Positions 4,035-55,882 of a stretch of DNA of 64,000 nucleotides are shown here, piece after piece. Below the pieces are notes generated by a model. The model saw only the letters and a program-made list of their open reading frames with translations, made no database searches and was not told where the DNA came from. The position numbers and the translations under genes are program-made. Source of the stretch: Marsupella aquatica. Lineage: Eukaryota > Plantae > Marchantiophyta. Every line of letters starts with the position of its first letter. The stretch's first letter is position 1. The DNA is taken from NCBI GenBank assembly GCA_973895155.1, contig OZ316895.1:24078281-24142280 (forward strand), written 5' to 3'.

Positions 4035-4071
4035 GAAGAATTTTGTGGTTGGTTGTGCCTAGACGAAAATC

Positions 4072-17074: not shown

Positions 17075-17852
17075 CTAGTTTACTATTGGTCACTTAGATT
17101 CTTTTATATTGGCACCCTAAAAAAGTTACCCTTCTCTTTCCCCAAGGTTTAAAAAAGGGCACACCACACACCAACCAGGAAAATAAGAATTTGACCTCCT
17201 CAAAAACTAAATAATAGCAAACCCCCAAGAAACTGCTTCCCCACCTCCTGCAAAAATGGAACGAGTTAAAACCATTCTAAAAATGGGAAATTTTATTCAA
17301 AAATGGGAAAAATACTGCCTTGCTCATCCTTCTTTCTCTCCCCCTAGTTGTTATACCCATATACCCACAAACGATGAGTGTAGGCTGTCAGTGAACATGT
17401 ATACCTTGCACTTTCTTGTCCTACACGTATCCATGTGAATTGTATTCATTGCACTTTGGAAGCATATTATTGTACAGTTGCCTAAGTTTATAGTGTATCA
17501 TATTTTCAAATAATTCCATGGCCCAAGAAACTGAGTGACTAAATACAAAGATTATCATAGATTCCATCCAAAAGTTAGTTTGCAAACTGACGAAGGATCC
17601 TTTTGGCGGAATTTGATATTATAGTGGTTGATGATAGTAGTTACCATTCATGACCTACCCCACATAGTGATACCATGGGGACTAATTTCTCTTGAAACAG
17701 AAAAATATGATGTTTAGACTATGCATGTGAGTGAGGACTAGCAAGGGGAGTCTGGGCTTGGGAAGCAGTTACTCTGAGTACGCATTGGTTTTTGGGCAGT
17801 CTTACTATAAAAACATGAAGAAAAACTCATAAGTGCTATGGTCTAGAGTTAA

Positions 17853-18200
17853 GGGCCGTCTTGCATGTGCACGGTCCCTAAAAACTTGGCTCTTTCATTC
17901 ACTCATGTCACCTTATCATTGAGCCAGTGCTTCATGCCGGACCCATCTCCTGAGGCAGGCCTGACGGCAACATTTGAGGAAATCTAAAGGCAAGGGCCAC
18001 AACTTTTCTAGCACTTCCCTTCAAGACCTTCAAATTTCATAACAAACAAAGTATTTTACTTTATAAGAACAAATCAACACATCATTTACAGAGATTTTGT
18101 GGACAAACAAAATCTACTTTTTCCCTGCATGTTTGGGAATGTGCATGTTCAGGAATGTAGAGGGCTGGAATTTCAAGGACCATCACATGCAAGACAGCCC
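17853..18200. mobile_element. Tourist/PIF-Harbinger-like MITE (copy 1)
   Basis: TIR GGGCCGTCTTGCATGTG / CACATGCAAGACAGCCC. TAA on both sides (17850-17852, 18201-18203). Confidence 0.85.
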
Positions 18201-18210
18201 TAAACTTTTA

Positions 18211-18548
18211 GGGCTGTCTTGCATGTGCAAGAGTCCTGAAAAATGCAACCCTTAGCAGCCCACAGATGTCGGGAAAAAGTGTGGACCCAGGATCTAAACA
18301 CAATCAAGAACACCTTATGTGTGAAGTGCTTATTGAGTCGGGGATCTACTGCTATTTTGTTTTATTCAAAGTTCAAAGTCCTGGACCTCAAGGGCCGGAA
18401 AATTTCCGGCCCTTGCCCTTGCATATCCTCCAAAGACGCCATTAGGACTGCCGGCTTGTCGCTTCCTTTAGAGATGCCACGGGTTTATTTGAGGGCCAAA
18501 TTATTTGAGGGCCAAAAATCAAAGGACCTTGCACATGCAAGATGGCCC
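18211..18548. mobile_element. Tourist/PIF-Harbinger-like MITE (copy 2, inverted relative to copy 1)
   Basis: TIR GGGCTGTCTTGCATGTGCAAG / CTTGCACATGCAAGATGGCCC. TTA on both sides (18208-18210, 18549-18551). Confidence 0.85.
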
Positions 18549-19976
18549 TTAGACTTGAGTCAAGCTAGGCAGGGGCAGAAACCTACTGTCTATATGGTGG
18601 GGTTGGGAATTGAAGCCAATTCGTTTTGTTCTTATCAATTACTGGGCATAGGCTAGTTGGATAAGTCTACAGAGAAATGAAGAGTCATTTTGGAGTTAAC
18701 TTTCTGGGTCCATCATCTTCGATTGCACTTTCATGGCAATTGCAATGCACTATGATTCTTTCAATTTAGGACTATTTTGGTCTTATCGGTCTTGCATGCC
18801 TCGATGCCTCCTCCATCCATGGACTTCATTGCCAAAGACTGGGAGGCTGATTGGCAATTCACATCTGCACTGCAGTTCCCAGCCGCTGAAACGTGAGCTG
18901 ATTTGAGGGTTCTTTCCATCCCATTTCCATTGCCCAGCACCAAAAAGATGACTTGAAGCATGCCCGTAGGCAATTGTGAGGGACGGAAATTTCAAGCCAC
19001 TGATTCTTGTGATAGAATTTCTTGCACCCAAGAATAAATGTTGGGAGTACCTGCCAATTTCATTCCAGCGAGCATCAATTTGTCAAAGATGTATCCATTA
19101 GAGAGACCAGCTGCCAGTCGATTAGAAAAATGTGGTATGGGTTCAGGGATCGAATGTGAGAGCTCAATAATCAACGGGTTGACTCGAGACATCTGTTTCG
19201 ACAAATTAGGGTTCCGTTCAATCCTGTGGTGCGAAACGAAGATCCTCTCTGAGCACCATCCAGAATCTGATATCCACAACCCTCCAGATCGGATTTCGTA
19301 TGTACCTGCGACTTCCATTGTCTTCCATGTTCTGCATCATCTTTATGTAAACAAAAAGAAACGATTTTTATTACTGTGTGGTCCGAATTAAACCGAAAAA
19401 GAGGACTAGTGGCTTCGATGTCACTCTTCGAATCACTATTTCCAAGTGGAGCCTCATTTCCAAGTGGAGCCTCGTTGAATTGGTTGTCACTGCCGCCTTC
19501 GTCTCCACGTGACGTGAAACTTGTAACTCGGGGTGCTGATGCCCGCTCCAGCAAGGTAAGAATTTCCGGTCAAGTGCTTAATACCCCGTATCTGGGACAC
19601 AACTCAACTAGACATACCATGTTTGGCTTGTAGACCCTTTGTCGTGTCGACCCGGCACAAACTTTCGACGAGTGTTTGGCGTAAGCTTCCAGGTTAATAA
19701 TATAGTGATTTCATAAGTACAATGGATCCCACATATTCCATTGCCCTGTTTCTTAGTGCTCTGTTCCAACCAAAACAGAACGCATGGTGAACTAGGGGTT
19801 TAGACGTCTAGGTGGCATGAACCTTCCATCAGCACTGACCGAGAAGCTGTTACGACAGCTGCTTAGACAAGCTGCGATTAAGATATACTTCGTATTCCAT
19901 AGTTGCGTCACGCGCATCAATTATGACAGCACAACGTATCAAGACATGGGCACTCCAGTTGCGAATGGGAGATCTA

Positions 19977-21429: not shown

Positions 21430-23033
21430 CTACCACAAGCGAGACTTCTTGAATGCTGTCTTTGCTTCTCTCAGCACTTCGTCCGTGTCTGCAGTTCCTC
21501 GAACAGTCACACTCTGTTTCTCAAGATCGCATTTCACCGAGATGACCCCTGGGACCTTGAGTAGTCTTTTGACCACCCTCCTTTCGCAGCCTTCACAACA
21601 GATAGGTATCTTCAATAAGAGCGTCTGCAAGACAGTATCGCGAGTTGACGTTAGAGGATGAATCACCGACATGAGACCCGGTAAATTGCAGATTGCACAG
21701 GATTCAATGATCGCAAGCCAACAGGGCCCGTGCATCCCTAACTTATAAAGCACGTAAGTACAAGGCCAGCAACAAGGTCTAATTTCGTGGGTGCCGGAGA
21801 GAAGCAAACGTCGAGGATGCTCACAACAATAATTCGACCAATTTTTCTCATGGAAACTGAATGTCCAAAACTTAAATTGATACTAATGAACAAAACACTA
21901 TGTCCAACAAATTCTCTTCTTTAGCGATTCATTGGATATCACCAAGCATACGACAACCGACATAGACAAGAAAGACACGAGCTACCCCGAGTCTTTCTTA
22001 CTTGTGCACCTCAAAACAGACTCCTTCCTTCCCTGGAATTCCCAAAGACTAAGGAAGTGAAAACGATCGCTCTTCATTTAGAGAATTCTAGGGTGATTCG
22101 GGTCATCGAGCAACTTACGTAAGGAGTGTTAGGAGGAACCGAAGGCCGATCCACGACCGGCACCACAGGAGTGTGGCTGATGGGAGTTTTGCTAGGCACA
22201 GACACTGGAGCAGGTGGATGATTAGCGCTGTGGCTGATGGGAGTTTTGCTAGGCACATCCACTGGAGCGGGTGGGGAATCAGCGCTCCTGTGAGTCTCTG
22301 TTGCGGATGGAGGATTAGCGCTACTTTGAGTCTCTGTTGCCATGGGCGGCGGTGGTGGTGGTGCACTGTGATAGCTCGGCTGCCGCGCTGATCTCGACCG
22401 TGGCTCCACAGGAGCCTGCCTGTCGGGAGTTTCGCTGGGCACAACCTCTGGAGCGGGTGGGGGATTAGCGCTCCTGTGAGTCTCTGTTGCCATGGATGGC
22501 GGTGGTGATGGTGCATTGTAATAGCTCGGCTGCCGCGATGATCTCGACCGTGGCTCCACAGGAGTGTGGCTTATGGGAGTTCCTCTAGGCGGTCCCATTG
22601 GAGCGGGTGGGGGATTACCGCTTCTGTAAGTCTCAGGTGGTGCATTGTAATAGCTCGGCTGCCGCGATGATCTCGACCGGGGCTCCACAGGAGCGTGGCT
22701 GATGGGAGTTTCACCGGGCACAACCTCCGGAGCGGGTGGGGGATTACCGCTTCTGTAAGTCCCTGTTGCCATGGGCGGTGGTGGTGGTGGTGGTGGTGCA
22801 TTGTAATAGCTCGGCTGCCGCACTGATCTCGACCGTGGGGCGCTGTATTCGCCACGAGGAACAGAGCTGTAGTAAGGGTCCACGACGGGAGAATCGTAAT
22901 AGTCATCATGTGGATAGTGAGGATCCCGACTCCTCCTCGGCTCTCTATGCGCCGACCCCTGATAGTGATATTTCACTGGAGAGGGCGACGATCCATCCAA
23001 CAGCCAGACTGGTTGGTCTGTACCGTAGAACAT
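21430..23033 (-). CDS. Heavy-metal-associated plant protein (HPP): Pro-rich repeat N-terminus plus C-terminal HMA domain, ~369 aa; coding exons 23033-22119 and 21624-21430
   Basis: HMA motif LKIPICCEGCERRV..L....GV.SV..D.....VTV.G. A phase-0 intron (GTAAGT...TTGCAG) joins ..TPY to TLLLK... The ATG at 23033 directly follows an acceptor AG, implying a 5' UTR intron (candidate donor ~23612). No CaaX end. Confidence 0.85.
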
Positions 23034-24594
23034 CTGCAATCAGAAGGGAGAAACAAAACCGAATCAATGACATGTAGAAATACCATTCGCTCAGGCGTGA
23101 AGAAGCTAAAGCCCCTCTTGTTGAGAACTCGCATGTTCACCGCTGCTGTCAAACCTGAGGGAGCTATCCACTTCGAACGTCTCACTCCTACAACCCTTAA
23201 GCAGCTATCTAATCCAATTCGAAGGTCTGCTTTCGAAAGTTGTCGAACCTGCATCTAGTTCCAAGATTTGCTTCCCATGATTACTTGTTGTCAAAGCAAG
23301 GCCCTCTAATCTCGTAGTTTACTCTTCATCCCAGGCAACCTCCTGGAGTTGAGGCGGTCTCATTCAATAGTCCTCGTACCGGAGCCACAAAGTCGAGAAC
23401 TCTAAATTCTACTGTAATTGTCATCTGCCGACTATTTACCGTGGCTGAAGCCTCTTGACAGCTACTTAAAACATAACTACTGCTGCGGGCGACAGCATCA
23501 TGAACGAAATCGCGCTCATCACCGAGAAGGTAAAGTACAGAATGGAATAATCAAGCAGACACTGACGCAGCGTGATGATTACGGGAAACACAAGTTTACA
23601 ACAGTCACAGTACCTGATTAACAGACAACATTTTCGCGAGTTGTTTACTGCTCCTCGTGTGCCGAAAGAAAGGCCTGCTGATTGTTTTTACCGACAAGAT
23701 CTCAGAAACAGTTCAACTGCAGATCGAGAACTCGTACAAATGGAAGGCGTCCTCCCTCCCCACAGCGGTTCCTCCGAGACTGGACCACGGCCCAAAACAC
23801 TCGAACGCACGGCACGTTGGATACCGCTTATGATTACACTACTAGTGCACTGTACACTGGCGAACACACAACTCCAACTATAAACGCAACAACGCCAGGG
23901 CCAGAAATCTACAATGATCAGCAAACGGTCTACAGGACAGTACGTCGGAACTAATGTCAGAAGCAAACGATGGCACTCAATGCTTGACGAACATGTCCGT
24001 TGCAGACACAGCTAAATTCTCTCGGGGAACGCAGTGAAAACACCGCTTTACAGACTGATCTCCCAGAGCTTGCCTTTGTTCCAGAGAGGCAGGCGGTGAA
24101 GCACCGCACACTTTAATGTCTCTCGGGAAACGTACTCCACACTTTACAGAGTTACAGACTGTGCCAGGCACCGAATTCTCCTCGAGAAATGTACTGTCAA
24201 TTGAGCTTCCAGATTGCCAGACACCGCCGCATCCCAGACGGATCAAGCCTACGCTACGAGCATGGAATCACCGGATATGGAGCACGAGGAGGCAGAGCAA
24301 ACAGAGGAAAGGACATGGAGGGAGACGATGGAAAGCAGAGGAGGGACAGGGGAGAAACAGAGGAGAGAAACAGAGGAGACAGAATCGTTCGGCTGTAAAC
24401 AACGGTGAAATCATGCACTGAAGCTGAAACGCCGTATTCCGGATCCCGGCCTTATACGACTAAGACGGCGCCGGGAAAGCAGGAGGCAGAGAAAAAGCTG
24501 CCAGCCCGATCAATTACCACTAAAATATATTTAACGGTCGGATCTCTCCGGAGAAACGAGTGCCTCCCACTATCCGTTCGATGGGGCTGGGAAT

Positions 24595-27800: not shown

Positions 27801-28962
27801 CCTACCATCCAGTTAGTGGGTTAGGTATTCAGGTGTCCCAAATGAAGCATGCCAAGTTGCAAGCACATACCGGACGAAAGAAGAAGGAAAACCAAGCAGA
27901 AAGAACATTGGCGGGACATCCTACAAGACCTCTCTATTCAAGATTCAGCCTCGTTCTAGACTAAGAACAATTGAGTTCCTTATTATTAGTTTCTCACTTG
28001 ACCTGTGCCACGAGTAACCTTGGCATGCTATTGTCAGGGCTATGGTTGCTGCTTTTTGCTTTGATGGGCAAGTGTCCCCGTACCATGGGTTCCAGCAGAT
28101 GGAGTGGCAGTTGGCGACTTCTGCCTGGGGGAGGTACTCTTTCAGGGTTGTTGTGTCTCTACATTTTGTGGTCTATTCTCAGCCTCACGCTGTCCATTTG
28201 GCCTGTTGTGTGTTTGGCTTGGCTTGGCCCCTTTCATTGTTTTGGGCTGGTTGTTTTCTTTTAGCCTTTCTATAAACAACTTTTAAGTACATTGCCACTC
28301 AAGATGTTTAAATTTACAATACTTTTTTTCCTATTTACAAAAATACCACAATTTCCATATATAGTTCCCCTGGTTACCTTGGTAAACTTCTCATCCATAT
28401 ATGAAATCGTGACATTTTTTTAAATACAAAAAAACAGTGACAGTATTATCAATTAGAATGTCTTTAGTGGCAAAGTACTTAATTGCTGTCTCTGTAAATG
28501 TGAAGCCCTCCCCCCCCCCCCCCCCCCACCCATAACCCCCTCTCCAGCCTGGCCAGGGTGTTCCAAGTTTCATAATCCCCAGCAAGCCCTGCCAAGTCTC
28601 AAAAAATTTTAATCTTATGTGAAAAATGGAAGAGTGCAACGGTAACGCTTGCTAACCCATGGCCTGGAGAGGCGTATTGACATGTGAACACCCCCTCACT
28701 CCCTAAAGTCACACTTGTTTCAATGTGGTGCAATGTAAATTGGTGCCAATAATTGGAAAACTTTTTTGTTAAAAGTTGTGTTGCCCTTGGATTCACAAGG
28801 TAGTGAGGGCTCTAGAGGGACAATAGTTTCTTCCTTCTTTCCTTCTGTTCATGCGGCATTTGTCCGGGTTCACAGGGAGAAACAATGGAAAAAGAAACAA
28901 TGGGAAAGAGTTCTCATAGAAGCACTCCGGTCAAACAGGAGCTCCTGGGCACAAGTGCAACC

Positions 28963-29498
28963 TGTCGTGACATATAGTATCGTAGCCATAGTGTATCGAA
29001 AATATACAAGTCACCGGCAAGGCATATGTGCAAGCTGCTAGCAACCAACATGCATAGAAAAAGTCCAATCACATTCACAAGTGCCAAGAAAAATCAAATG
29101 AAGTGGTATGTACGTAGTGGAGGTGTAAATCTCTATATATATAAAAGGGGTGATAGAAACAAGTGTACTGAAATCGAATCGAAAACCGGCGGGATGCCAA
29201 GATCGGTCGGGAGCATCTAACGAATCACTATGTGAATCCCGTGTACGGAACCGACGAGCACTGTCTGAGCTCTGTCGACAGCGATTCAAGAAGAACTGAA
29301 AACCCACAAAGAAAGACATGCCCTAAGTAAACAAAGTCCTGGCATCACACTAACAAGTGCGTTTGCTTCAAGAACGCCTGGCATTTGCTATAAGAACATG
29401 TCGCTAACTCAAGTCGTACACTAGCCCTAACTACATACCTAGCGGGCATGCGAGGGACATGCCGATGTGCATAAGAGGCACTATCCCTCGGCATGACA
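28963..29498 (-). repeat. Complete 536-bp LTR of the Gypsy element (plus partial tandem copy at 29501-29676)
   Basis: Minus-strand termini TGTCATG...CACGACA. 29501-29676 repeats 28963-29138 with ~5 mismatches. A G7 PPT-like run lies on the minus strand at 29677-29683. Confidence 0.8.
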
Positions 29499-32400
29499 GC
29501 TGTCGTGACATATAGTATCGTAGCCATAGTGTATCGAAAACATACAAGTCACCGGCAAGGCATATGTGCAAGCTACTAGCAACCAACATGCATAGAAAAA
29601 GTCCAATCACATTCACAAGTGCCAAGAAAAAGCAAATGAAGTGGTATGTACGTAGTGGAGGTGTAAACCTCTGTATCCCCCCCAAACCACAGCCAAAAGG
29701 AGGGCTGAAGAAAATTCAGGTAGCACGTGGAGCACAGGAAGGGCAAAACCATAACCCTTCTGGCACCTGGGTAAGTTCAAGCCGAAGGCAGAAAAGATGG
29801 TACCCTCCATTGCAATTGTCACACAGCAGCATCTAGTCAGCATCATCAATTCGCAAACACACTTTGCAAGGGTAGTCCACAGGTGGAATCCAGGTAGAAG
29901 TCAGAATGGTGGGATCCAGGTTAGGCAGATGACAAGGGGCGCAATTCTTGGCATTGTCAGCAATTGTGCGCCCATCTGCCCCTTGTAACTCTAGCACTCC
30001 AGACGGTCGAATAGCTTTAACCCTGAGAATAGTACGACTGGTAGAGGTGTCCAGGGTGTTGTTAGCTTGTCGTTGCAAGTACACAAAATCTCCCACATCA
30101 AACTTCCTGACCTTGGACTGAAAAGTGCCCCCTCGTGTGTGTGCATAACGCAGTGTGTCCCTATGCTGTGCAATGGCCAAATTCTCCATGGCCATGGGCA
30201 TAACCCTCCTGAATAGGGCAGCCCTCTTAGAGATCACATCAGACCAAGTCACGCTGAATCCAAGTCCACCACCTGAAGCATGTGAGCAGCAATAGCAGAA
30301 GGTGGAACTGGGTGACGACCAAACAACAAGAAGTAGGGAGAAAAGTTAGATAGTGATGCATGTCTGGACATCCTATACCCCATGGCAATGTAGGGTAAGG
30401 CCAGGTCCCAATTCTCCTTGTTTTTGGTGAGGCAGATCTTTCGGAGACCCTTCTTGCATGTCTGAACCATGCGCTCTGCCAAGCCATCTGCTTGTTGGTG
30501 ATCTCGTGACGTTTGGCGATGATCAATGAGGGCCTGATCAAGCAGCTCCTGGAACTCTCCTCTGAACTCTGATCCCTGGTCGGTGAGACATTCTACACAA
30601 GCTCCAAAGCGACTGAGAACTTGTTGCAAGAATGCCTGGCTGGTGCTACGGGAGGTCTTATCCGGCAATGCCACAAGTTCTATCCACTTGGAGAAATGCT
30701 CTATCATGATCATGATGTAGAGATTACCCCGAGATGTGAGGGGTAATTCTCCAGCCAAATCACATGATCAACGATAAACATGCCCTGAATAGGGAGTGGA
30801 TGAAGTGTGGGTTGCCGAGATGTGAAAGAAGTCCTTACCCTATCACACTACTCACACCGGGCAATAACATCTTGAACCTGGCCATGCATGCCTCTCCAAT
30901 GATAATGGGGGACCAAGAGGCTATAAGTCCTCTTAACACCAAAATGACCAAGCTCAGAATGTACCTTACGGATAAGGCCAACCCTCTCATGAATGGGTGG
31001 AACCACCACTTCCCTGTCTGGCAGGCAGCGCACAAGATGATCTCCCTTCCACAAGTAGCGCTTGGACCTTTGTTGAATTCGGTCTCTCTAGGCAGCAGTA
31101 ACATGGGTGGGGTACTCCCCATGCTGCAGAAATCTCAGAGTGTCGTTGTCCTCCCATATGTCCATCATAGGTTGGTCAACAATGTAGCATGGCAGCAAAG
31201 CAAGATAGGTAGATGCATGAAATGTAGGCAGGATGGAAACCTGGTCAAAATCCTGCCGTGCATCTGAGGAATCATCAGAGGTAATCAAAGGGCTACGGGA
31301 CATAGTGTTAGCATTCTAATGTGTCACACCAGGCCTATGAATTACCTCAAAGGCATACTCCTGGAGTATGAGCGCCCAACGAGCAAGCTTGCCAGTAAGC
31401 TTGTCATTGGTCATCAACCACTTCAAGGGCTGGTGGTCGGTGTAGAGGACAAACCTGGTCCCATAGAGGTAGGGCCTGTAATGTATGACAGCCCACACAA
31501 CACAAGGCATTCACCCTCATACGAAGAATAATGACTCTCTGCCTGATTGTTGCTCCTGGATGCATAGGCAATGACGTACTCTTTACCTTCTTCATCATGC
31601 TGGCCCAGAATGGCACCGATCCCAAGGGCACTCCAATCTGTGTGTAGCACAAAGACCTTGCTGAAATCAGGTCTTCTCAGCACCGGGTATTCTGAGAGCT
31701 TCTCCTTCAAAGTGGCAAATGCTACTCAGCATCTGTACTCCATGTCCAAGTCACATTCTTTTTCAACAAAACATACAATGGGTGTGCAATGGTGCTGAAA
31801 TCTTTGATGTAGATCCGGTAGTAATTGCACAACCCAATAAAACTCCTCAAAGTGTGAACATCGGTAGGAGTGGGCATTTCCAAGATGGATACCACCTTGG
31901 CCTAGTGAGCCATGGTTCCATGCTGTCAAATAGCTCCTCTGGCCGTGGCATGGGGTACTTGTCCTGGGGTGTGGCCAGGTTCAGTGGCCTGTAGTCCCCA
32001 CACATGCACTTCTCTGTCCATAATCCACTGGAATCCTTCTTTGCTGGCATCATTGTAGCTGCTGCAAAATCTGATGTAGATGGCTGAATAAGACCAGCTT
32101 CATAGAGCTCTTGGCACCTCTCATCCACCAGCTGCCACTCATGCTTACTCAAACGGTGCCTCCGCCTGAAGATAGGTGTTTCATCAGCCAACTCAATGGA
32201 GAACTGCATAGTCTTGCACTTACCCAAGTCCTTCATAGAGAAAGCAGACACGTTCTCATGCTTGAGGAGCAAATTCAGCAGCTGGTCCTTCTGTCTTTTA
32301 CTCAGGTGGTTGCCCATGATGAATGTGTAGTTGGCAACACTAGGAATAGGACCTGATGTACTCATGCTTGAAGAGCTAGAAGTGCCAGCCTCTCCACTAT

Positions 32401-33060
32401 CCAAGCTACTAACATGTTGCTGATAAGGTGATGAGGCCGCCTCTCCAAGGCCTGTTGTACCTGCTGATCTGAGTTGGTCCATACCATGAAACTCATAAAT
32501 ACTGTCAGCCACGTTACAAGGGACCTCCTCCCCCCCCCCCCCAACACTTGGACTGAAGCGGTGAGTGTTGAATAGCGGTAAGTGCACCTGGTCCGGATGC
32601 CATGTAGCAGCACCATGGAGTGGGAGAGCTGGAACTCCAGATGCTGGATGAATGTACATCTGAAAAAGGATGCAAGTGACCAGAAGCCAAGTGAGAGCAT
32701 TAAGATCCATTACCCTGCCAAGTAAAGCATTCCTGGCCAGCCTAGTGATCTTGGGGTGACTTGTAGTACCGGATTGGAAGCCCATAGCCCGTTCTCTCTC
32801 CTCAGGACTAGGTTCATCCCATGTACCGGTAGAATGTCGATAAACCAGGCCAGGATCATCACCCTGAAAGGCATGTGCATCTGGAAAGGATACAAATGTA
32901 GGCCAAGCAACACGGGGCTGTCCAATGGTATTGGCTGGATACCAAGGTGTTGACTCTTGCCGTGTAACTGGTTGGCAAGAACTGTCAGGATCCAAAATCT
33001 GGTCCACTATGAGGGTAGTGTCCCTGGATGTGTGGTGAAGAGCTAACTTGAGAAGCGCTT
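28963..33060 (-). mobile_element. 5'-truncated, degenerate Ty3/Gypsy LTR retrotransposon: C5-MTase-like fragment, RT (internally deleted), RNase H, integrase, PHD finger, 3' LTR
   Basis: RT start (CGDYRPLN..TPQDKYPMP), RNase H (LHTDWS..GIGAIL, YTDHQPL) and integrase (H..LGHFG, IEHFSKW, LTDQGSEF, DGLAERM) lie in Gypsy order on the minus strand. Stops and frameshifts are present, the YxDD region is deleted near 31920, and gag/protease/5' LTR are absent. Confidence 0.93.
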
Positions 33061-35305
33061 GATTAATCGAAGAGGCAACAGAAAAGCTTGCTGTAAAGTA
33101 TCAGTCTTAAGGTGGATAACAAGGTTGATGTTGGAGGATGCGAAAGTCGAAAGATCTTGGGGTTCTTGTTTTATGTATATCTCCTGAACTTGCATTGTTG
33201 TTGGAAAGGCAGTAGGTATTCTAACGACGCTGGAAGTGTTTGTTTTTACAGGAGTACGTGTACCACATGCTACTCTTCAGGCTGTTTCCGCTGCTATGTT
33301 GTTTTAAATGTTTGAATCTGTTTCCCATCACAATTTTACTTTACGTGCTGGAAGTGTCTGACGAAATGCTGCTCATGCCCTTAAAAAAACGCCCAATTGC
33401 TCTTTTCTGATGAATTGAGAAGATCGGCTGAGTCATGACGTCTTAAGGTTTCAACAGGCAACTTTGTAGCTCGACAATAGTTCGTGAGTTTGCGTATCAT
33501 CCCTCAAAATCTCTTTTTTAAGGGACAGGAAACTGCTTGAACGGTAGGAATCAATGGTAAATTACTTAGAGAGTGATTTGAATGAATTGAGGGAGATCAC
33601 CTCCCAACTGACCCTGCATTCTGGTTATTAGAATTTACGGCTATGGCTGGTACTTCACACTTTTTCAGAAGTTTCTGTTCTTGGGGTAGATGGCATTATA
33701 TGGCTTCAAACCCACACACGTACTGAATCCTTGGAGGACATACGTGAAGTTGTCTGCTCTTTTGATGGGATCTCAAGGACTGACTAAATGGTCAGTCATG
33801 TGCCTCAACTATCCATCTCAACTCTTGTTCAAATCAACCAAGGTTGCGACTCTCTCTGAAGCATTTTTCTGTTCCAAGGAACTTGCATGCTACGCATTCT
33901 TACCTTGACACGTTTACCATCTTGCACTTTCCCCAAATAGGCATCCGTGGACTTTCAATTCTATGCATTCATTCGTTGCCTCCCTCTCTCTGTCTCTCCC
34001 CCACGAAGAAATCTATTCTACTATGGCCAAGTCGTTGCAACTCTCTTGGAAGAAAGAGAGGACAGGGACTTTTCTCTCAAGCCTAAACCGTGGAACGGAC
34101 AACCAATTCAGCATTTTTCTCTTGTAATTTTTCTTTGCCTGCCTCATTGGTGCTTCTCGGCCTCAGAGATTTGCTAGTGTTCAGAACCGGGACTTGCAGA
34201 ATTTTGTTTTCAATTGTCTGTCGCATGGCCACTTCTGGCTGTACTGATTGAGTTTAGTTTGTGTAAATCAAGCATTTAGGACAAGAATTTGCTTAATTTC
34301 TGAAACCAAGTTATTCTCTTGATTAGGTGCTGTCTGTGATGGTGATTAGCATTCATTCCTGGTCTTTGAAGGAAGTATCCACTCCATGAGTACGTCTTAG
34401 TCATAATGCTGGTCATAGGTCTGGGTGTTTTCACACTCACAGATGCAAATACACCTTCAAACTTCACTCAACGTGGCAGGTGTGGTCAAAATTTGTGAGG
34501 CATTTGTTCTTGACTCGTTTATGGACAATCTTTACCCTGAACCCTGCTACTTCCAGGTTTCTTTCACCCCACGTCCTTGTCATTAGATTCCTGTGCACAT
34601 ATCTTGGCTTTTCCCATTTTCCTGGATTTACCACCTTGTTCATTAATAAACTTTTCCTATCATGTGATCCTATGCCAATGTGGCTGCTTGTGGTAATATC
34701 TTTGGTCTGCCGTGGACTTGCAGACGGAAATGTTGTTTTGCTCCCCTCTGATTGGATTCCCTGTCCTCGTCCCACCAATATCCTCACCGGGGAAGTCTTG
34801 ACGGCGTGGACAGCACATGCAAATGTTTAGGGGCGACATTTAACAGAACCTTTAGTCGAGGTGAAGGCAGGTCATGAAGTGTAGGCTGCCAAGAGGCCGA
34901 AAACTCCACATTCTGTGCAATAGATATGTCTCCATAGCAGGCGGCAAATTATTCTTTCATATGGTTGCGACAATACGCTCCAAAACATTCTGGCTCGTTC
35001 ACAACTGCAACACCTCAGTGAAAGCCAATAAGGTGCTTATTACCAATGCTGCACGTCAAGCAATGGGCAATAAATGTGAAATGGAGTATTTCCTTTGACT
35101 ATAATTTTACATCACCTCGAGAGGTGGGTCCAATTTTTGGCCCTTTCACTCGAGGGATTTGCATTTGTTGGGCTTGATTCTAAATTAGCTCATTCAAAGT
35201 AGTTTTGGTATGGAGTCTATTTTTAGAACGAGAAGTGGCTCTCCGGTGTGCTTCGGTGAAAAAAGCCAGAAGTGCCAAACACCTTTTTTAGTAGGACATC
35301 AAACA

Positions 35306-36806: not shown

Positions 36807-37196
36807 CTACTCAACGGGAGCGCCCCTGAGCTTGGCAGACTGTTGCGTAAGGTGCTCCAGTCGAATTTGCATGCGAGTTACGCGATACAGGAGCCAGTAA
36901 AAGAAGAGCGCACAGAAGACCAAGAGAGAGTTGCGCTGGCTCTTGAAGATCATCTTGCTGTGCCGCTCCAGTTCTCCCGGATGCCCTTGCACAGGCGGCA
37001 TGCTCTGTATCTTCCAGTAAATATCCAGCGCTAGGAAGAGCGCCAGCGGTACGCCGGCCAGCAACGGCTGCAGCATACTCTGCGCCACATGAATCAACCC
37101 CTTCCTCAATCCATGCAAAGCCGGCAGCGTCAGCATCAGCAGCACCGCTGCCTCTATCGCGGCCACCAACCCAATCGCAAGCCACTCCAACGCCAT
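36807..37196 (-). CDS. BAP31/BAP29-like ER membrane protein (short plant type), 129 aa, intronless
   Basis: MALEW..., LLMLTLP, LRKGL, LFL.LDIYWK and KSQRN.LL...ALFFYW.LY match the short plant B-cell-receptor-associated-protein-like family, with three hydrophobic segments. Confidence 0.9.
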   Translation of the reverse strand: MALEWLAIGLVAAIEAAVLLMLTLPALHGLRKGLIHVAQSMLQPLLAGVPLALFLALDIYWKIQSMPPVQGHPGELERHSKMIFKSQRNSLLVFCALFFYWLLYRVTRMQIRLEHLTQQSAKLRGAPVE

Positions 37197-38253
37197 CTCT
37201 CTCCCTTTCTCAAATTCCTCTCAACCCTAATCTCCCCCTTTCAGATCCTTCTCCCTCTCCACTCCCGCGTCGACGATTCGCACAAACACAGAACCCGTTT
37301 AGTCCTGTTCCGAAGTGACAGCTCTCCACCGTTTCTCGTGTAAACCCTTCAATCTCTGCAGCTCCAGATTCTTCGCTCCACAGCTCTCCACTTCCTTCCT
37401 CGAGCGTCACTCTTCCGTTTCTCAATTTTTTCCGCTTCACTGCGAGTATCTCCTTCCGCTCCTCGATCACATCAGTTCCTCGCCCTGTGCAGAAATCATC
37501 GAACTCTATTCGATCTCAGCTCCGCCGCTTCTTCTCCGTCGATCCGTTCCCCAAAAGACCCATGAAAAGTATGAGACGTCCCAAAAAGTAATATTATTAG
37601 AAGTCTAGACTTCTAAACTTCGAATGTGAACGTCAAAATGAAAGTACGGGCATGTTTACGGTGCTAATTAGATAATCAGTGCTAACGGAGTCGTAAATAT
37701 AATGCAATAATGCAACTTCGTACGATGGACACGTGTGACGATCCAGTTGGCTGTGTGCGTGCCACATTGCCATTCGCTGTCCCCGTATAACCGCGGGGGA
37801 CACTTGGTACGCACGTCAGCACCCAGAGACCTTTGTTTGGTCATCATGCAATGTTGTTTATTTGAGTCAATTTTATACAAGGGCCTCTCAAAGGTTCATA
37901 GATGATGGCTTTTGACCATAAAAAAATGTCCATACCTTTTTTGCCGTGTTCTATACATTTTATTTTCACTGTTCATAGTAACTTATGGTCATTTATGCCA
38001 AATGTCTATGACAAACAATTATGGGACATGAATTTGGTAGTTTATTACTATATTCATAACTCTAACTACTAACTTGAGTTTTGTCAAATTAGAGGTTAGA
38101 GAAGCCATATACCTTGTAACGCAGTGACAAAAAACAAAATGAGCCAAACCCAGAAACAAGATCTGGGAGTCTCAAGCCAACTGTTCTGCAGAGGTTTTGG
38201 CTACCGGAACGTTGTGGGCCTGGTTGGGTTGAAATTGTGTGATTTTTTAGAAG

Positions 38254-41200
38254 TGTTGAACTAAGACGTCATTCGCAACGACCATACAACCATGACTCAT
38301 TCCATGCACATGTAGTCGACACAATCTCTACGTGGTTCACCTCTTCTCCAAGGCTACGTCCACACGAACACTCAAGCTTTACTTCAAGAGTAGACGAACA
38401 CACATGCTCTCTCTCTTTCTCCTGTTGCTCTGTTACAATGAGTAAGCACCACACACCAGCGGTTTACACTAGCCTTGGTATATACAAGGTCACACACGAC
38501 TAACCTAACCTCAGCTAAGATCCTAACTGTGGTTAGCCTAAGTGTCGTAACCTATGAGTCACAAGACTAAGAGCAATCATTAACAAACTCCCCCTTGACT
38601 CTAGTCTTGGGGACTGCAATTTCTGCTATCCATATGAGATACTCAGCGGGAAATTCTAGACAATCACCTAAAACCATAGGTGTCCCCCTAAAAACCATTT
38701 AAGGTTAACTAAGGGTTAACTAGAATTAAGCCATAGCCATAACAGGATTGAGTAACCCATATACAGAAATTATATATTGTTAAGTTACTCTACTTGTGCT
38801 GCAAATGCAAAACTTGCAAAGTAGCACGGTGTCTTGAGTAACTCTCCAAAGGAATCACTTTGGTAAAAGCATCAGCCGGGTTGAGCTTTCCATCAATCTT
38901 GACTAGCTCAAACATTTTATCAGACACTGCTTGCCTAATAAAATGATACCTGATGTCAATGTGTTTCACCCTGCTATCCATAACCTGGTTAATAGCTAGG
39001 TGAAGCGCACTTTGGCTGTCACAATGAAGAGTCATTTTTCCATGCTCCAATCCCATCTCAGTGACCAGCTTATCCAACCAAATTGCTTCCTTTGCTGCTT
39101 CTGCTACTGCAACATATTCTGCTTCTGTAGTAGACTGAGATACACACTTCTGCAAGGTAGATCTCCAACTTATGCATCCTCTTCCAAGAGTAAACACATA
39201 CCCAGTCGTTGACCTCCTTGTTTCCAGACAGCCTCCGTAGTCAGAATCTACATAGCCAACCAAAGATTTGGTTTTGTTTGATCTACTATCAAACAACAGA
39301 CCATAGTCTATTGTGCCCTTAAGATACCTGAGAATCCATTTCACAGCCTCCCAATGTACCTTCCCTGGATTTGACATGAATCTACTCACTTTGCCCATTG
39401 CTAGGGCTAGATCAGGCCTGGTACATGTCATCAAATACATTAGACTGCCCACTGCCTTCTCATAAGGAACCTTAGTCATCAAGCCTCTCTCCACTGGATC
39501 CGTGGGGCAGAAAGCCGATGATAACTTGAAATGTGGAGCCAAAGGAATACTTACTGGCTTACAATTTTCCATGTTGAATCTTGCAAGTACCTTTTCAGCA
39601 TACTTGCCTTGATTCAGCCACAATTGTCCAGTTTCAAAGTTCCTCGTAATCTCCATACCTAAGATCCTCTTGGCTTTCCCAAAATCCTTCATTCGGAATT
39701 CAGAATTCAATTTTGCTTTGAGTTTGTCAACCTCAGTTTGATCCTTAGCCGCAATCAACATGTCATCCACATAGAGCACCAGAATGAGCAAACCAAAAAC
39801 ACCATTCTTGACTGATTTCGTATACACACAAGGGTCATACACCATCCTAGTGAATCCTTGTGCAAGCATGAAATCATCAAACCGCTTGTTCCACTGCCGA
39901 GGAGCTTGCTTCCATCCATACAAGGACTTAAGTAACCTGCAAGCTAAACTCTCTTGGCCCTTCTTCACAAAACCCAGTGGTTGCCTCATGAAAATTTGTT
40001 CCTCCAAGATGCCATAGAGAAAAGCAGTAACAACATCCATTTGATCTAACACTAGATCAAAAAATACAACAAGTTGACACAAAATTCGTATCGTGGAATA
40101 CTTGGCAACTGGAGAGAAGACCTCATTGTAATCCACTCCCTTCTCTTGAGTGAATCCCTTGGCAACAAGCCTTGCCTTGTATATCTTGTCTCCTCCATCT
40201 GAAGAGTTGTCCTTCAGCTTGTAAATCTACTTGCTATCCACCACTTGTTGATCACTTGGCAGTTGCACCAGCTCCCATGTTCTATTGTCACTTAAAGATT
40301 GCAACTCCCTCTGCATCGTTGCATTCCATTCATTTTTCTCGTCTGAAATGCACGCCTCATGATAAGAAGAAGGTTCTCCTTCTTCCAAGATCAGTGCTCT
40401 GTCATCATCTTCAGGTGCAATGTCAACATCATCTAACCTTGATGAATCTGTCCATTGTCCATACCTTGTAGGAGCTCGAGTAGTACGTCTTGATTTTCTA
40501 GTTGATGATTCTGGTTGATCTTGTTCTGTTGGTTGAATTTGAGGTATTCCAACAACAACTTGCTCCTTTTGTTCCAATACCGGAACCAGCTCTATTCTCG
40601 GAGCACCTCCTTCATTTATGTCATGAAAACTCTCATGACCAATCTCCCCCACAACATGGTCCAGGATAGGAGATTTACCTTTGTCAGTACGGGAAGCCTG
40701 AGCATTCTCCCCCTCCTTTGATGATTTGGATTCATTAAAGGATACATCTCTACTGACAAGCAATGTACAAGCTTCTGGATCCCATAGCCTGTAACCTTTC
40801 ACACCTGGTTGATAACCAAGAAAAAGACACTTCTTGGAAGTAGAATCTAGTTTAGATCGATTCTGCTTAGGTGTGAGAGCATATGCATCACTTCCAAAGA
40901 CTCTCAAAACCTGATAGTCTGCGTGCCGTCCATACCTTATTTCAAACGGCGTCTTGAAATTGATTGCACTTGAAGGAGAAAGATTTACCAAATAAGCTGC
41001 CGTATTTATAGCTTCAGCCCAAAATTTATGCGGTAAACCTGATTGGCTCAACATACTCCTCGATCGCTCCAATAGTGTTTGGTTTAGCCGCTCACAAACA
41101 CCATTTTGTTGAGGAGTATAAACTGTCGTGAGATGATGAGTAATCCCTTGCTCTGCACAATATAGTTCAAATTCACTTGAACTGTACTCCCCGCCGTTAT

Positions 41201-43849
41201 CTGATCGCAGATATCTCACCTTGGATCCAGTCTGATTCTCAATTTGGGCTTTCCACTTCTTAAAAGTGCCAAAAACTTCAGACTTGGCGTGTAGAAATGT
41301 GATCCACACATATCGTGAGTAATCATCAATGAACGTGACATAGTACAATTTTCCAGAAAGTGAGGGAGTTGGGGCTGGACCCCACACATCACTATGTACA
41401 TACTCAAGTATAGCTTTGGTATTGTGAGTTCTAACACCAAAGGTTCTCCTGTGCTGCTTCCCAAGCACATAGTGTTCACAAAAATCTAGCTTAGTAGATT
41501 CCAAATTAGAAAGAAGTCCTTTCCTACGAAGTACCGCCAAACCCTTTTCACTCATGTGTTTCAATCTGCAGTGCCATAACTGAGTCATCTCGCCTTGAGA
41601 TCTAGTTACATTGGCTTCTTCACAAATCACGTTGCCCTTGCCTCCATTTCCTCAACGGGATCTCCTCCTCACTGCTAGACTCCTCCCGAGTCGATAGCAG
41701 ATGATCTAGGCCCATAGCACAAAGAATTCCCTTAACCTGCTTCTCCCATAGCAAATAATCTGTGCGCCCATCATATTTTTCCACCTCAAACTTGACACCT
41801 CCAAACTTGGATACCATCGTTGTCCTCCCAACGTTCTCCACGTGCTATTGTTGTGCTGCTCCCTATATGCTTTTTCCTTCCTTCCTTCTCGTTGACTCAA
41901 ATCCAAATCACGAAAAAATGTCGTTTTTTGCAACTTTCCAAAAAACTTGAAACTTATCACCGCCACTTAGCCCACCAACCTAGCAAGCCAACGCTGAAAT
42001 CCAAAATTGAAATCGAGTTCCGACGAAAAACTTTTTCACGTTTCGGTCGGGGTGGGTAAAACTCAAAAATTCTTCCCCGTTTTGACCACCTTGGGGAATA
42101 AGAAAAATTCCAAGTACCACCCGTCGTCGGAAATTCAAATCGAGTGGTGCACCGCGTTGCTAGCTTCAGTGGCTACGTTCTCGCCAAAAAATATCCGAAA
42201 AAAGTTACCGTTCGGACCTTGGAATCTTCGACTAAAGGCCAAAAAACAGCTCTCTGTTTTTTCGGAATATTCCTTGGACTATGCAACAGGTCTCACAGGG
42301 GGCCGTTCCCCCTGTCCAAGCGGTTAATTTGGTGGGTCACCGGGCCCGGGATGCCGTTTAACGAATGAGGAGCCTGGAAAGGATTAAAAAACTGGGCCTA
42401 AGGGGGTTTAAGCCCCTTAACACAAAAATATTGTCTTAAAAAAGGCGCATCCGCGTATAGGCGACGCGTGACGGGCCAGGCAGTGCACAGGGGGCCGGGG
42501 AGTAAAAAACCGAGTCAAAATGGGCAGGGATGGAGCTGCGACGGCCGGGACGTCCGCGACGGCCACGACCGTCGGGACGTCTGGGACATCCGTGCCGGCT
42601 GCGACGTCCGCGCTGGCCGTGACGTCTAGGATGGCCGGGACGTCCGGGACGTCCGCGATGGGAGTATTAGCGAGGAGGAGGAGGGGGTCGCCAACGGGGT
42701 ATTGACAGGGGTGCAAGGGTCGGGAGGGTGTGTATACACACCACCAAAAAGGTCTTATTCTAAGGCAAAATGTGCACAAAAAATAAATTTGTTGGGTTAC
42801 TCACACTGCCGTTATCACTTTTCACCAGATAAAGACTAGTTGTCGACGGGAAATGTTACCGAATTGCACCGGCACCGTTTGCAACTCTAGCAAAGTAAAA
42901 AATTCCTGTCATGACTCCTTCACTCCGCATCAAGTGTCAATCTTGGACTCAAAATGACCACTGCACTGCGATCTCTCCGTTGAGCCGTTGCACTTCCCGT
43001 TTCTTCCTTTGAGTCGAACGCAACGACAAGAAACCCCGCTTCAGTCAAAAGAAGACTCCATAGCTAGTCAGAAACTCAGAACGGCTCTTTTGCCTGGTAC
43101 ATCGCACTCACTACACCCTCGATAGCATACCAGCTACCGAAATGATCAGCTTTGCCCGATCTACGATTTGAGCTAAAGGTTGTGACGCCTCGCGCACCAC
43201 AAAGCTCACACCGTCGGGAAAACAATCTCAGTTCTCCCCCAAAAGAACCGTCGAAGAAAACCGTTGAACACGAATCACAAAAAATCCAGAACGACGGAAA
43301 CGTGAATTCCTCTACACCACGAACTCCGTTCAGAGATTTCTTTGCACCGTCGGAAAGCCCTTGCCCCGATCTATCCGTTGAGCCCAACACCTCCAAGTTC
43401 CATGCGATAGATGTTCCTGAAATCCACCAACTCTAACCGCTGGAAAAACCGTCACCAACACATCACGAAAATTTTGATCACCTCAACGTCACCTCCCAGG
43501 CTTGCTCTGATACCAATTGTTGAACTAAGACGTCATTCGCAACGACCATACAACCATGACTCATTCCATGCACACGTAGTCGACACAATCTCTATGTGGT
43601 TCACCTCTTCTCCAAGGCTACGTACACACGAACACTCAAGCTTTACTTCAAGAGTAGACGAACACACATGCTCTCTCTCTTCCTCCTGTTGCTCTGTTAC
43701 AATGAGTAAGCACCACACACCAATGGCTTACACTAGCCCTGGTATATACAAGGTCACACACGACTAACCTAACCTCAGCTAAGATCCTAACTGTGGTTAG
43801 CCTAAGTGCCGTAACCTATGAGTCACAAGACTAAGAGCAATCCTTAACA
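38254..43849 (-). mobile_element. Ty1/Copia LTR retrotransposon (Tnt1/Tork-like), structurally complete ends, internally deleted
   Basis: 332-bp LTRs at 38254-38585 and 43518-43849 (TG..CA, ~10 mismatches by eye). TSD AGAAG. PBS TGGTATCAGAGC (tRNA-iMet, 43504-43515). PPT AAGGGGGAG next to the 3' LTR. Confidence 0.97.
38790..41841 (-). pseudogene. Copia gag-pol remnant: gag N-terminus fused to integrase, then RT-RNase H
   Basis: gag start KFEVEKYDG..YLLW; integrase WHCRL.H, VHSDVWGP, LRSDNGGEY, PQQNG..ER; RT MDVVTAFL, LYVDDML; RNase H STTEAEY, DSQSA, KHIDIRYHFIR. Premature stop at 40227-40229. Most of gag and the protease are missing. Confidence 0.92.
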
Positions 43850-53520: not shown

Positions 53521-55882
53521 TTGCTGTTTTAGACAAAAAAAATTTGCTAGGTTTCTGGTCTTCCATTAGCCAATTTCTCACCTAGGCACAGAACCCACTA
53601 GCCAAACTCTGATGGTTGTGCTTAGATCAAGGCAGACCTGATGGGCAAAATTTAATCTAGGAAAATTAGAGAAGTATTATTCCTAGCATCTTCTCCTTTG
53701 CACAAGGTGAGGTTTGTCACCTGACCCGGACAAAAAAGAACAAGAAAAACCTTATGAAAGCTCCATATTAAAGTTCTTCTGTGACAAAATTGTCCGCTTG
53801 GCCGAATGTGCTTGGTCTGTGCCTGCTTGGCCAAATGTGTTTGGTCTGTGCGTGACTTTTGGCTTGTTGACCTTTCTCGGTCTGGCCAGGTTTACTCCAG
53901 TTTTATTGGGATTTACTATTCATATAGTAAAGGATTCCTTTCAAGAAAAAAAGAAGAGAATTTCCTGACCAAAATGAACCAAAAAAACCTTATAAAAGCT
54001 CCATATGAAAGTTCTTACTCTGCCCGGATGCCACAGCGGGGCAGGTAGCAGTGTTGTCCGAGATCTGAACGCTTTCCCTTGCCCGGATTGTGAAAGCTCC
54101 ACTGCCCGAAGCGAGAAAACGCCTCCTGCACGGACCGAAGACAACGTGGGGCACCACCTGTCACACTGCCCTTTTCGCAAAAAGGTCGTGCGTTTCCTTT
54201 TTTGTTAGCCCTCGGACACAGAGGTGGATGCCCGACGGGCAGGGACCAGCGGAAAAAAACAACCTGGTGCTGCCCGACCGCGAAAACAACGACAGCAACC
54301 CCCGGGCAGTAAACATCTCGCCCTGCCCAAAACATTGCCGGGCAGGAAAATACACAAGGAACAGAAGTACAGTAATAAACGTATCACATACAAACTACAA
54401 ACGTCCAAACGTTACACCGCGGGCAGCAGGTAAACAAGGAGCAGAATCTGCGAATACGCTACCCGGATGTGGAAGTTTTTCTCTGCCCGAGGCAAGAGCA
54501 CCGCGGGCAGCCGTGCAGGCAGGAATGATAAAAAGTTGAGGCCACTCTCCCCTCTGCCTTTTCTCCCGTTGGGTCAACAACACAATGAAGTAATGAACCC
54601 ACAATAGGCAGTGCAGGCCCAGGAGATCGCACAGCGGCGTTGATTCCTCCGCACAAGTGACATTCATTGATGCACGATCAGAAAGACGAATCAATTTGTC
54701 TCGAATCTGGGGCATTGGTTGATTTTTCGAGGCTACTCACGCAGGAAGAAGGTGAAGGACCGCAGTGGAAGTCACCCAAAGCGTTTTGATACAGCGATTG
54801 GTTGTTTGATGGATTGATCGGAGGTACTACCCCTGATGACGAGTGATTGTAGAATAAATCGCACATGGCACTAGTTGCTGTAGTAGCTTGAGATTCATTC
54901 GACATGTTGGTTGATGATTTTATTTTCGTTTTGAAGCTTCGGAATGCTGTAGTTTCGTGATTTGGTCGTTCTCCTATGTTGCTGAGGTTTAGGGTTGCGG
55001 TATGGATTTCTTAATCGTTCCCCTTGGAGCGTGTGATCCTGAGCCCAAGTCCTTCCCAATTTCCAGCTCTGACACCGCATGCGAAAGCCCTCAGGCGCTA
55101 AGCTTAACTATTCCCTTCTTACCGTGCCTCCCTTGAGAATCCATTTTTTACTTCCCCTGCTGTGTGTAGTGATTCCTCCGGCTCAGTCGCTCCGAAGGTC
55201 AGTCGTAAACCTCGGACTGTTGCTTAGGTCACCCATGTGCTTTCTGAGGTGCTGAGGGTTTGAGAGCGAAGGTAAAGCGATTAAGACTCTGCATTTCTCT
55301 CTCTAGACTACTGGTAATTGAATTGTTGTTGCCGAGGAGTGCAGCAGCACGACAGAGGCTCTTATTGCAGAGCGGTGGCCAGTCAATCCTCTCTGGGCGA
55401 ATGGAAGCAGAAGCATGAAAACACAATTCACGTTCATAAGCCCTCAGAGGTGGATCACCCGTCGGTGTCAACGAAATTGGTTGGCAGGACAGTAGAGCAG
55501 GAGGAAAAAATCCCCAAACGGAGACACCAATGGTTTTCGAGAGATGAAGTTCAGGGATCAAAACGGGAGTCTACTCAGAGGGAGCCGTGCTTATGATGAA
55601 CGTTGAGGCTGGCATTCTCTGTGAAGGAAGCTTTGAGTACATTGACGAGATTGGTGGCATCAGCAGTCGTCATCACCGAGATGCGGCTGGCAGTCTCAAG
55701 CAGATCATGGCTGTGTTTCAATTAGGAGAAGAACTTACATCCAGATTAGGTGCAAATGGAGACAGCTGGATGAGGCCCACGAGATTCGTGGGCAATGTTC
55801 ATGATCTCAGAGCAGTTAGGACGACCGGCAAGGGGGGCAGTAGTGGGTCCTATAGTGGAAGGAGTATTGGAGTGGAGTAAGA

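Follow-up and report, generated by a model that had tools for sequence, protein, structure and literature searches.

Why a transposon should retain an enzyme that silences transposons has been a puzzle since 2018, and the locus described here raises the question for a land plant. In the window, by which we mean the whole 64,000-nt stretch of Marsupella aquatica DNA that was analysed, a first-pass annotation had pointed to a minus-strand open frame containing what looked like motifs IX-X of a C5 cytosine methyltransferase (DNMT), in frame ahead of the reverse transcriptase (RT) of a Gypsy element that also carried a PHD reader. Does this family of elements encode a methyltransferase of its own, of which kind is it, and what could it be used for?

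The frame is open from stop to stop over positions 33100-31847 on the minus strand (417 aa), and the peptide that had been quoted from it is present. It lies in a 5'-truncated, decayed Ty3/Gypsy element that occupies 28963-33058 on the minus strand and has the following features, given from the truncated side to the right end:

32645..33058, minus strand: C-terminal fragment of a DNMT3-like C5 methyltransferase, supported by relatives, hhalign and dN/dS; it begins after motif VIII and comprises the target-recognition region and motifs IX and X, motifs I-VIII having been lost by the 5' truncation
about 32803-32777, minus strand: motif IX
about 32743-32705, minus strand: motif X
32324..32644, minus strand: Ser/Gly-rich linker, open in frame and under weak constraint (amino acid identity 0.44, dN/dS 0.45)
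31922..32323, minus strand: N-terminal part of RT, up to CGDYR..PQDKYPMP, where the deletion ends it
31420..31921, minus strand: C-terminus of RT and RNase H (RT_RNaseH_2, E 5e-23), with frameshifts and stops
29870..31100, minus strand: broken DDE integrase in which the zinc-binding part, the core, and the C-terminal part are recognizable (rve, E 1e-11 on 30252-30767; relatives colinear at 70-76% DNA identity)
29716..29868, minus strand: PHD finger at the end of pol, Cys4-His-Cys3, with one internal stop (PF00628 in the relative L002)
29676..29683, minus strand: polypurine tract, recognized from the sequence and kept in 4/4 aligned copies
29500..29676, minus strand: terminal repeat B, first copy, 177 nt (the B copies are 97% identical)
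29495..29504, no strand: B/A junction CA-NN-TG within a 10-bp palindrome, where the sequence of the element's right end meets that of its left end
29139..29498, minus strand: terminal repeat A, whose 5' partner is lost here and present in whole relatives
28963..29138, minus strand: terminal repeat B, second copy, ending in ...ACGACA, the right end of the element, outside which the sequencing depth falls

The methyltransferase fragment corresponds to the C-terminal 40% of the domain and is in frame with the start of RT, with no stop codon between the two in the window. The annotated continuation of the frame into RT is correct for the N-terminal part of RT and wrong for its core, as a deletion of about 370-400 bp at 31947-31921 has taken this out, including the YxDD motif. 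Likewise, the PHD reader exists as a finger at the end of pol, but the window copy of it is interrupted by a stop. Sequence 5' of about 33058 is missing from this copy, and homology to other copies ends at about 33054, in agreement with the truncation that had been placed near 33060. Because of the 5' loss, the RT deletion, and the stops and frameshifts downstream, the window copy is regarded as dead. In sequencing runs X1-X3, the summed contig depth over 28961-33074 is approximately 100- to 1000-fold higher than in the flanks and is back at flank level beyond 33074, and in run X5 the same rise is seen over most of the coding part; run depth is not a copy number, and these four runs may include the source sample, so that we read it only as 'many copies'. 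Among the runs listed for the element, from which rows with a small share were left aside, there was no RNA run, a result that carries no information on expression.

Eighty related loci were compared with the window. They are colinear with it from about 33054 to 29786 with approximately 66-78% of the DNA identical and with methyltransferase, RT, RNase H (RH), integrase (INT), and PHD following one another, and the methyltransferase part aligns in 79 of the 80 loci fetched, most of those long enough continuing into RT-RH-INT-PHD, which speaks against a neighbouring insertion. The window fragment alone gave no Pfam match at E<=1, so the profile search that had been proposed for the residues of this copy came out negative, and no meaningful PDB sequence match; in full copies the methyltransferase profile PF00145 does match. 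When longer proteins were searched with the first 146 residues of the frame, 28 relatives with 61-78% identity were found; 11 of them have a precomputed PF00145 match, and the names of two assign them to chromosomes of Sphagnum magellanicum. Among 1.84 billion representatives, 571 matched at E<=0.001, 150 of them listed. Residues 2-138 of the fragment aligned by hhalign with a 27-sequence DNMT alignment at a probability of 100 and E 3e-42, an alignment that came from a search with the same fragment and is therefore not independent. In a phmmer comparison, the IX-X stretch of the relative P0187 aligned with IX-X of DNMT3A, in a segment that is not significant alone. The 28 relatives and the 571 database matches indicate that the methyltransferase resemblance of the fragment is not due to chance, and with them the placement of motifs IX-X in frame ahead of RT is upheld. 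In the ESM Atlas, PF00145 clusters only were obtained, the best of them eukaryotic and mostly from Streptophyta.

Relatives up to 77-78% identical, some of them in S. magellanicum chromosomes, have motifs I-X in place between protease and RT, and whole relatives present Gag, protease, DNA_methylase and RT in this order. Protease is followed by DNA_methylase in P0029 and P0196, in both of which Gag is in frame with the protease-onward frame, and DNA_methylase is followed by RT/RH in P0002 and P0182. The S. magellanicum proteins P0022 and P0023 match locus L002 at 69-94% by segment, and we therefore term these loci Sphagnum-like. One majority-open frame runs from protease to PHD over L002 8018-14177, with no stop shared among the Sphagnum-like loci. 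A programmed gag-pol frameshift at L002 8030 was considered and rejected, since 43 of 50 other loci differ there, which marks it as a lesion of the L002 copy. The linker is open in P0002, P0182, and P0196, and its commonest stop (27/76 loci) is not commoner in the 80 loci than stops at CAG/TGG codons inside the DNMT (28/78, 27/80, and 28/80), so that a conserved leaky stop after the DNMT is rejected for this subfamily. Stops in the 80 loci concentrate at CAG, CAA, and TGG codons; this pattern is the signature expected of host CHG/CHH methylation and suggests that the copies get silenced.

Contigs from the sequencing runs bear on what the window copy has lost. One X3 contig departs from the window at 33048 with 243 differing letters, the visible part of which reads TNLAP (by eye), as does the sequence after motif VIII in relatives. 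At motifs II and VI, L002 is matched by contigs of high depth from X1 and X3, none of whose listed changes falls on the first base of the Glu codon, and run X5 covers all 29 bins of motifs I-VIII of L002. In X1-X3, which contain the window's own subfamily, 7/29 bins each were covered against L002 at a threshold of 80% and motif IV was not among them, gaps that prove nothing. The host's own family is thus likely, as far as these contigs can be aligned, to have the methyltransferase part upstream of the truncation.

The count of conserved residues covers 107 near-complete domains, among them redundant members of clusters. The motif I glycine is present in 87/87 covered domains, the catalytic cysteine of motif IV in 107/107, the motif VI glutamate in 105/107, the motif VIII arginine in 104/107, and the motif X glycine in 96/101; motifs I, IV, VI, and VIII, for which the first-pass annotation had looked to full copies, are therefore carried by them. 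This count is fairer than the 80/80 cysteines in the loci, which are biased because the motif was among the search patterns. The residue preceding the catalytic cysteine is glutamate in 71 of the 107 domains and the canonical proline in 28, and the two versions, Pro-Cys and Glu-Cys, occur intermingled in groups of close relatives.

The best sequence match of P0187 is DNMT3A (E 3e-8), followed by DRM (5e-3) and HhaI (1e-2). An AF2 model of its domain (pLDDT 93, pTM 0.92) is closest to DNMT3B/3A (Foldseek E 2e-17, Z 28.8, rmsd 2.6 over 271 residues), with bacterial enzymes at Z <= 25.6. The motif order in full relatives is I-X, unpermuted. A plant DRM was rejected because the permuted order (VI-X before I-V) is absent and the DRM structure 4onj scores far below DNMT3A, so that the earlier 'DNMT3/DRM-like' keeps its first half and loses its second. 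As judged from alignments and the modelled fold, the domain is an unpermuted DNMT3-like C5 methyltransferase, the DNMT3 label denoting sequence and fold similarity, not a position in a tree with host DNMT families. It is predicted to be a SAM-dependent C5 cytosine methyltransferase acting de novo.

The methyltransferase is under purifying selection. Between the window and 20 of the 80 related loci, the fragment has a dN/dS of 0.08 at a dS of about 2.0, RNase H and integrase have 0.07 each, and the linker has 0.45; with dS near saturation these ratios are rough, and the contrast with the linker is clear. Among the loci themselves, which are mostly decayed, the DNMT has values of 0.37-0.56 versus 0.37-0.44 for RT, RH, and INT. 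Rows left out were DNMT motifs I-VIII (the window is without them and the alignment was forced), RT (deletion), and the INT C-terminus with PHD (dS saturated). RNase H and integrase (window 29716-31921 versus L001-L080) have 78-80% protein identity at a dS of about 1.7-2.2, and this identity to Sphagnum-like copies exceeds that of the neighbouring host gene to Riccia (66%); the cause could be strong constraint or else an old horizontal transfer from one bog bryophyte to another.

Whole relatives are 9.0-10.3 kb long with the layout A-internal-B-A-B, and they start with TGTCAT and end with ACA or ATA, giving TG...CA ends. The right end in the window shows the corresponding polypurine tract, B, A, B, and a terminal CA at 28963. 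Both A-A and B-B repeats were found in 8 of 22 long loci, the rest being partial or cut. Target duplications were assessed in nine loci: a perfect 4-bp duplication was found in four (one by eye), 3/4 bases agreed in another four, two of which are the same insertion, and none was found in the ninth. The inner B/A joint reads CA-NN-TG and in the window forms part of the 10-bp palindrome. After the 5' A repeat, seven loci inspected by eye (L002:5849, L012:5488, and L017:5086 among them) had no obvious tRNA primer site and started with a similar A-rich stretch. Two known kinds of element were rejected at this point: a canonical Ty3/Gypsy element with two complete identical LTRs, because the 5' end has A only and the 3' end B-A-B, and a DIRS/Ngaro element, because there are an rve integrase and 4-bp duplications and no tyrosine recombinase. 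We infer that the integrase may cut circular or tandem B-A-B-A cDNA at one CA-NN-TG joint. That split ends go together here with a DDE integrase implies that the element replicates by an unusual route.

The PHD finger of L002 matches PF00628 at E 3e-10, and its nearest structures are the fingers of WSTF, KMT2D, KDM5, ATXR5, and BAZ2B; a 38-aa half PHD gave no Pfam match. At the aromatic-cage position, 38 of 42 family fingers have glycine and none has tryptophan; the finger thus lacks the cage tryptophan of H3K4me3 readers. Fingers of this PHD class bind H3 tails unmethylated at K4, like the ADD domain of DNMT3, and by this analogy the family finger is predicted to read H3 tails unmethylated at K4.

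Of 254 proteins collected for the wider family, 241 match a DNMT profile that was built from the family's own matches. The DNMT precedes RT in 27 proteins, follows RNase H in 47, and in 23 it stands before an integrase match without RT being seen. The second architecture, RT-RH-DNMT-INT-PHD, is represented by P0119, P0246, P0064, and about 45 other proteins, including some from chlorophytes; its named members are from Scenedesmus sp. and Chlamydomonas eustigma, and a DNMT-integrase protein is named from Cymbomonas. A PHD finger occurs in 30/38 long proteins with the DNMT after RNase H and in 2/7 with the DNMT before RT. For 39 of the 74 proteins with both domains (35 short or near-duplicate ones were left out), unrooted RT and DNMT trees without outgroup were compared, as had been suggested at the outset. 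They are congruent, with a Mantel rho of 0.76 (0/2000 permutations as high), 14/36 shared splits, and a separation of the two architectures in both trees (100/99 and 97/92), which indicates that the methyltransferase has long been in the company of the RT; P0253 and P0254 are long branches, and neither architecture is shown to be ancestral. Six distant proteins (P0075, P0077, P0093, P0112, P0243, and P0245) lack an RT, terminating 62-168 residues beyond the DNMT, and may mark subfamilies with a stop or frameshift at that point. For another distant protein, P0244, a PHD and a chromodomain are listed besides the DNMT.

The neighbourhood of the element contains a Bap31-family gene at 36807-37220 (minus strand, single frame), whose best named matches, among seven named, are from Calypogeia fissa (81%) and Riccia sorocarpa (66%). 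The former, together with the S. magellanicum chromosome proteins, bears out the land-plant host, for which this single gene suggests a leafy liverwort. A Copia element at 38251-43814 looks young, with 300-nt repeats that are 97% identical and INT and RT-RH frames of 474 and 478 aa with one stop between them. The window further contains an uninterrupted arginine decarboxylase frame of 696 aa at 4063-6150 (plus strand), an open frame of 1924 aa at 55856-61627 (plus strand) with 60-nt and 105-nt tandem repeats, a Pro/Ser-rich, repetitive frame of 321 aa at 22074-23039 (minus strand) with repeat units of 129-186 nt, and inverted-repeat pairs of MITE-like size at 8235-8845 and 17850-18551, with arms of 79 and 44 nt.

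As to the use of the enzyme, we give about even chances to the proposal that it methylates the element's own new double-stranded cDNA in the particle before integration. One frame from protease to PHD would cause the enzyme, RT, and integrase to be packaged together, and given such co-packaging the simplest use of a de novo enzyme is on the new cDNA. As known from Ty3/Gypsy biology, the polyprotein would be packaged and cut by its own protease, so that the enzyme would be next to the cDNA during its synthesis by RT. The predicted domain would then methylate de novo, probably at CG by analogy with SymbioDIRS-Dnmt3, the DDE integrase would cut circular or tandem-repeat cDNA at one CA-NN-TG junction, and the integrase-linked PHD, by reading H3 unmethylated at K4, would steer insertion away from active promoters. 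A new copy would arrive already marked, host maintenance methylation would keep the mark, and the marked copy might do less harm to the host or be hidden from surveillance of unmethylated DNA.

An enzymatic role is favoured by the de novo methylation of CG that SymbioDIRS-Dnmt3 domains perform in yeast, according to the passages cited from PMC5890265. Several observations stand against self-methylation. CpG is 0.28 in the element's coding part versus 0.35 in the ORFs of the Copia element nearby, and in six Sphagnum-like elements depletion is weaker (0.45-0.55) than in the flanks (0.15-0.27); CpG and CHG depletion, taken as an indicator of self-methylation, is not discriminating in the window element or in these six. 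Motif IV is Glu-Cys in 71/107 domains and Pro-Cys in only 28/107. In addition, the KnitGypsy-Dnmt3 domain gave no methylation in yeast, a result that its authors call inconclusive in the same passages, as DNMT3B failed there too (PMC5890265).

It is also conceivable, though unlikely in our estimate, that the enzyme acts at or after integration with the integrase-PHD complex, methylating the target site and its flanks, or older copies in trans, and so building a silent niche. Writer and reader share a polyprotein, the DNMT lies between RNase H and integrase, near the targeting module, in 47/74 proteins with RT and DNMT, and the PHD frequency of that architecture (30/38) fits such a role. In the window's subfamily, however, the DNMT is upstream of RT and parted from the integrase by RT-RH, and the 2/7 of the DNMT-before-RT architecture suggest that writer and reader are not obligately linked. 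We consider it distinctly unlikely that the domain is kept for binding or for an RNA role, that is, to grip or protect cDNA, RNA, or an RNA-DNA hybrid, to help at the B/A junction, or to methylate RNA. The prevalence of Glu-Cys over Pro-Cys, the negative yeast result reported for the Klebsormidium domain in part of PMC5890265, and the absence of extra CpG depletion would agree with it, but even very distant members retain the SAM-binding residues and the full catalytic set, the interleaving of the two motif IV versions suggests that they are interchangeable, and the modelled fold matches DNA-bound DNMT3.

Quite improbable is a use of the enzyme as a tool against silencing or competitors, in which a gene-body-like CG context would mimic host genes or rival elements would be silenced. 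In K. nitens, CG methylation marks active gene bodies and CHG/CHH methylation marks silent elements, as stated in the cited part of PMC5890265, and the family is abundant in several runs; on the other side, stops pile up at CAG, CAA, and TGG, as would be expected of host CHG/CHH methylation, and KnitGypsy copies carry CHG and CHH methylation according to the same part of PMC5890265. That the motifs are a chance match or an unrelated neighbouring insertion, as the lack of Pfam and PDB matches for the fragment alone might suggest, has next to no probability, being already refuted by colinear whole elements with motifs I-X in place.

Of these readings, methylation of new cDNA before integration is given the best chance. 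The puzzle of the silencing enzyme persists in part because Symbiodinium and Klebsormidium, the known hosts, are difficult to handle experimentally and because no signal came from the Gypsy-type domain in yeast. An abundant family with natural intact domains takes the question to bryophytes, for which methylomes and host methyltransferase mutants exist. The published range widens from one alga to chlorophytes and land plants, suggesting an old origin, and transposon copies may be among the DNMTs counted in annotated bryophyte and green-algal genomes. More broadly, and tentatively, with the balance somewhat against the proposal as a whole, DNMT3-Gypsy elements may form a single old clade that spans the green lineage from chlorophytes and streptophyte algae to liverworts and peat mosses, rather than going back to a single capture in Klebsormidium; the clade would have retained a de novo methyltransferase in active form, along with a PHD of the H3K4me0 type, since before land plants, moved the enzyme between two positions in pol, used a DDE integrase that cuts an internal palindromic junction, and become abundant enough in some bryophytes to serve as a second source of de novo methylation. 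If this is true, the elements may supply the sole DNMT3-type enzyme in chlorophytes, in which host DNMT3/DRM is reported absent in a review passage.

The closest known system is KnitGypsy-Dnmt3 of Klebsormidium nitens, described in the cited passages of PMC5890265 as a Gypsy element with Dnmt3 in the pol frame, DIRS-like repeats, and Ka/Ks below 0.2. Its likeness to the present family comprises an unpermuted DNMT3-like domain, intronless and in the Gypsy pol frame (whole in relatives, a fragment in the window), the PR..RT-RH-INT domain set and order with a DDE integrase, DIRS-like A-coding-B-A-B repeats (the window retains B-A-B), and purifying selection on the DNMT. It is a likeness by description, as no match is named as Klebsormidium among the listed matches, most of which are without a name. 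In contrast to the algal element, the hosts here are land plants, a liverwort and Sphagnum, and the family looks far more abundant. The passages on KnitGypsy-Dnmt3 make no mention of a PHD, the position of the DNMT in pol, target duplications, or a junction palindrome. In the part cited, De Mendoza et al. (2018; PMC5890265) confine the capture to the K. nitens lineage, whereas the relatives found here reach chlorophytes; 'streptophytes' is used for Gypsy-DNMT3 with reference to that work in passages of PMC12344493 and bioRxiv 10.64898/2026.05.21.726589.

SymbioDIRS-Dnmt3 of Symbiodinium, as far as the same passages of PMC5890265 describe it, likewise has a DNMT3-type domain as part of its RT polyprotein and repeats in the layout A-coding-B-A-B, and it occurs in two domain orders, with RT and DNMT trees that agree; it encodes a tyrosine recombinase, unlike the liverwort family with its DDE integrase, TG...CA ends, and 4-bp duplications. 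The EpiLTRs of Cymbomonas and Euglena are also LTR elements that pair a methyltransferase with a chromatin reader, in their case an adenine methyltransferase, a DNMT that is sister to DNMT4, and a chromodomain, and the available text of the preprint calls them distinct from streptophyte Gypsy-DNMT3 (bioRxiv 10.64898/2026.05.21.726589). An EpiLTR was rejected for the window element, as Pfam scans gave no adenine methyltransferase, the DNMT is closest to DNMT3, and a chromodomain occurs only in the distant P0244. Gypsy-7a_cRei of Chlamydomonas reinhardtii is a further green-lineage Gypsy element with a PHD finger; unlike the window family, it has near-ordinary paired LTRs, and its legend lists no methyltransferase (PMC9940879, part of the text).

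With the catalytic domain of mammalian DNMT3A/3B (PDB 6kda, 6brr, 5yx2), the retrotransposon domain shares the fold, the motif order I-X, and similar wording of IX-X, and differs in its 24-27% identity, its longer target-recognition region, its Glu-Cys motif IV, and its encoding by a retrotransposon without PWWP or ADD domain.

The first-pass annotation knew of no land-plant description. The parts consulted of PMC10952607, PMC11982613, PMC9940879, PMC9861306, and bioRxiv 10.1101/2021.11.30.470311 hold no land-plant case, and the literature yielded no account of a land-plant host, a chlorophyte DNMT-after-RNase H architecture, or congruent trees, which supplements or subscription papers could hold; elements of this kind, their terminal repeat layout included, are, however, already known from Klebsormidium (PMC5890265, in part). 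By its sequence, the window element appears to be a new land-plant member of the KnitGypsy-Dnmt3-type elements; its methyltransferase domain is well supported, its ends have an unusual structure, and it notably widens the known range of these elements.
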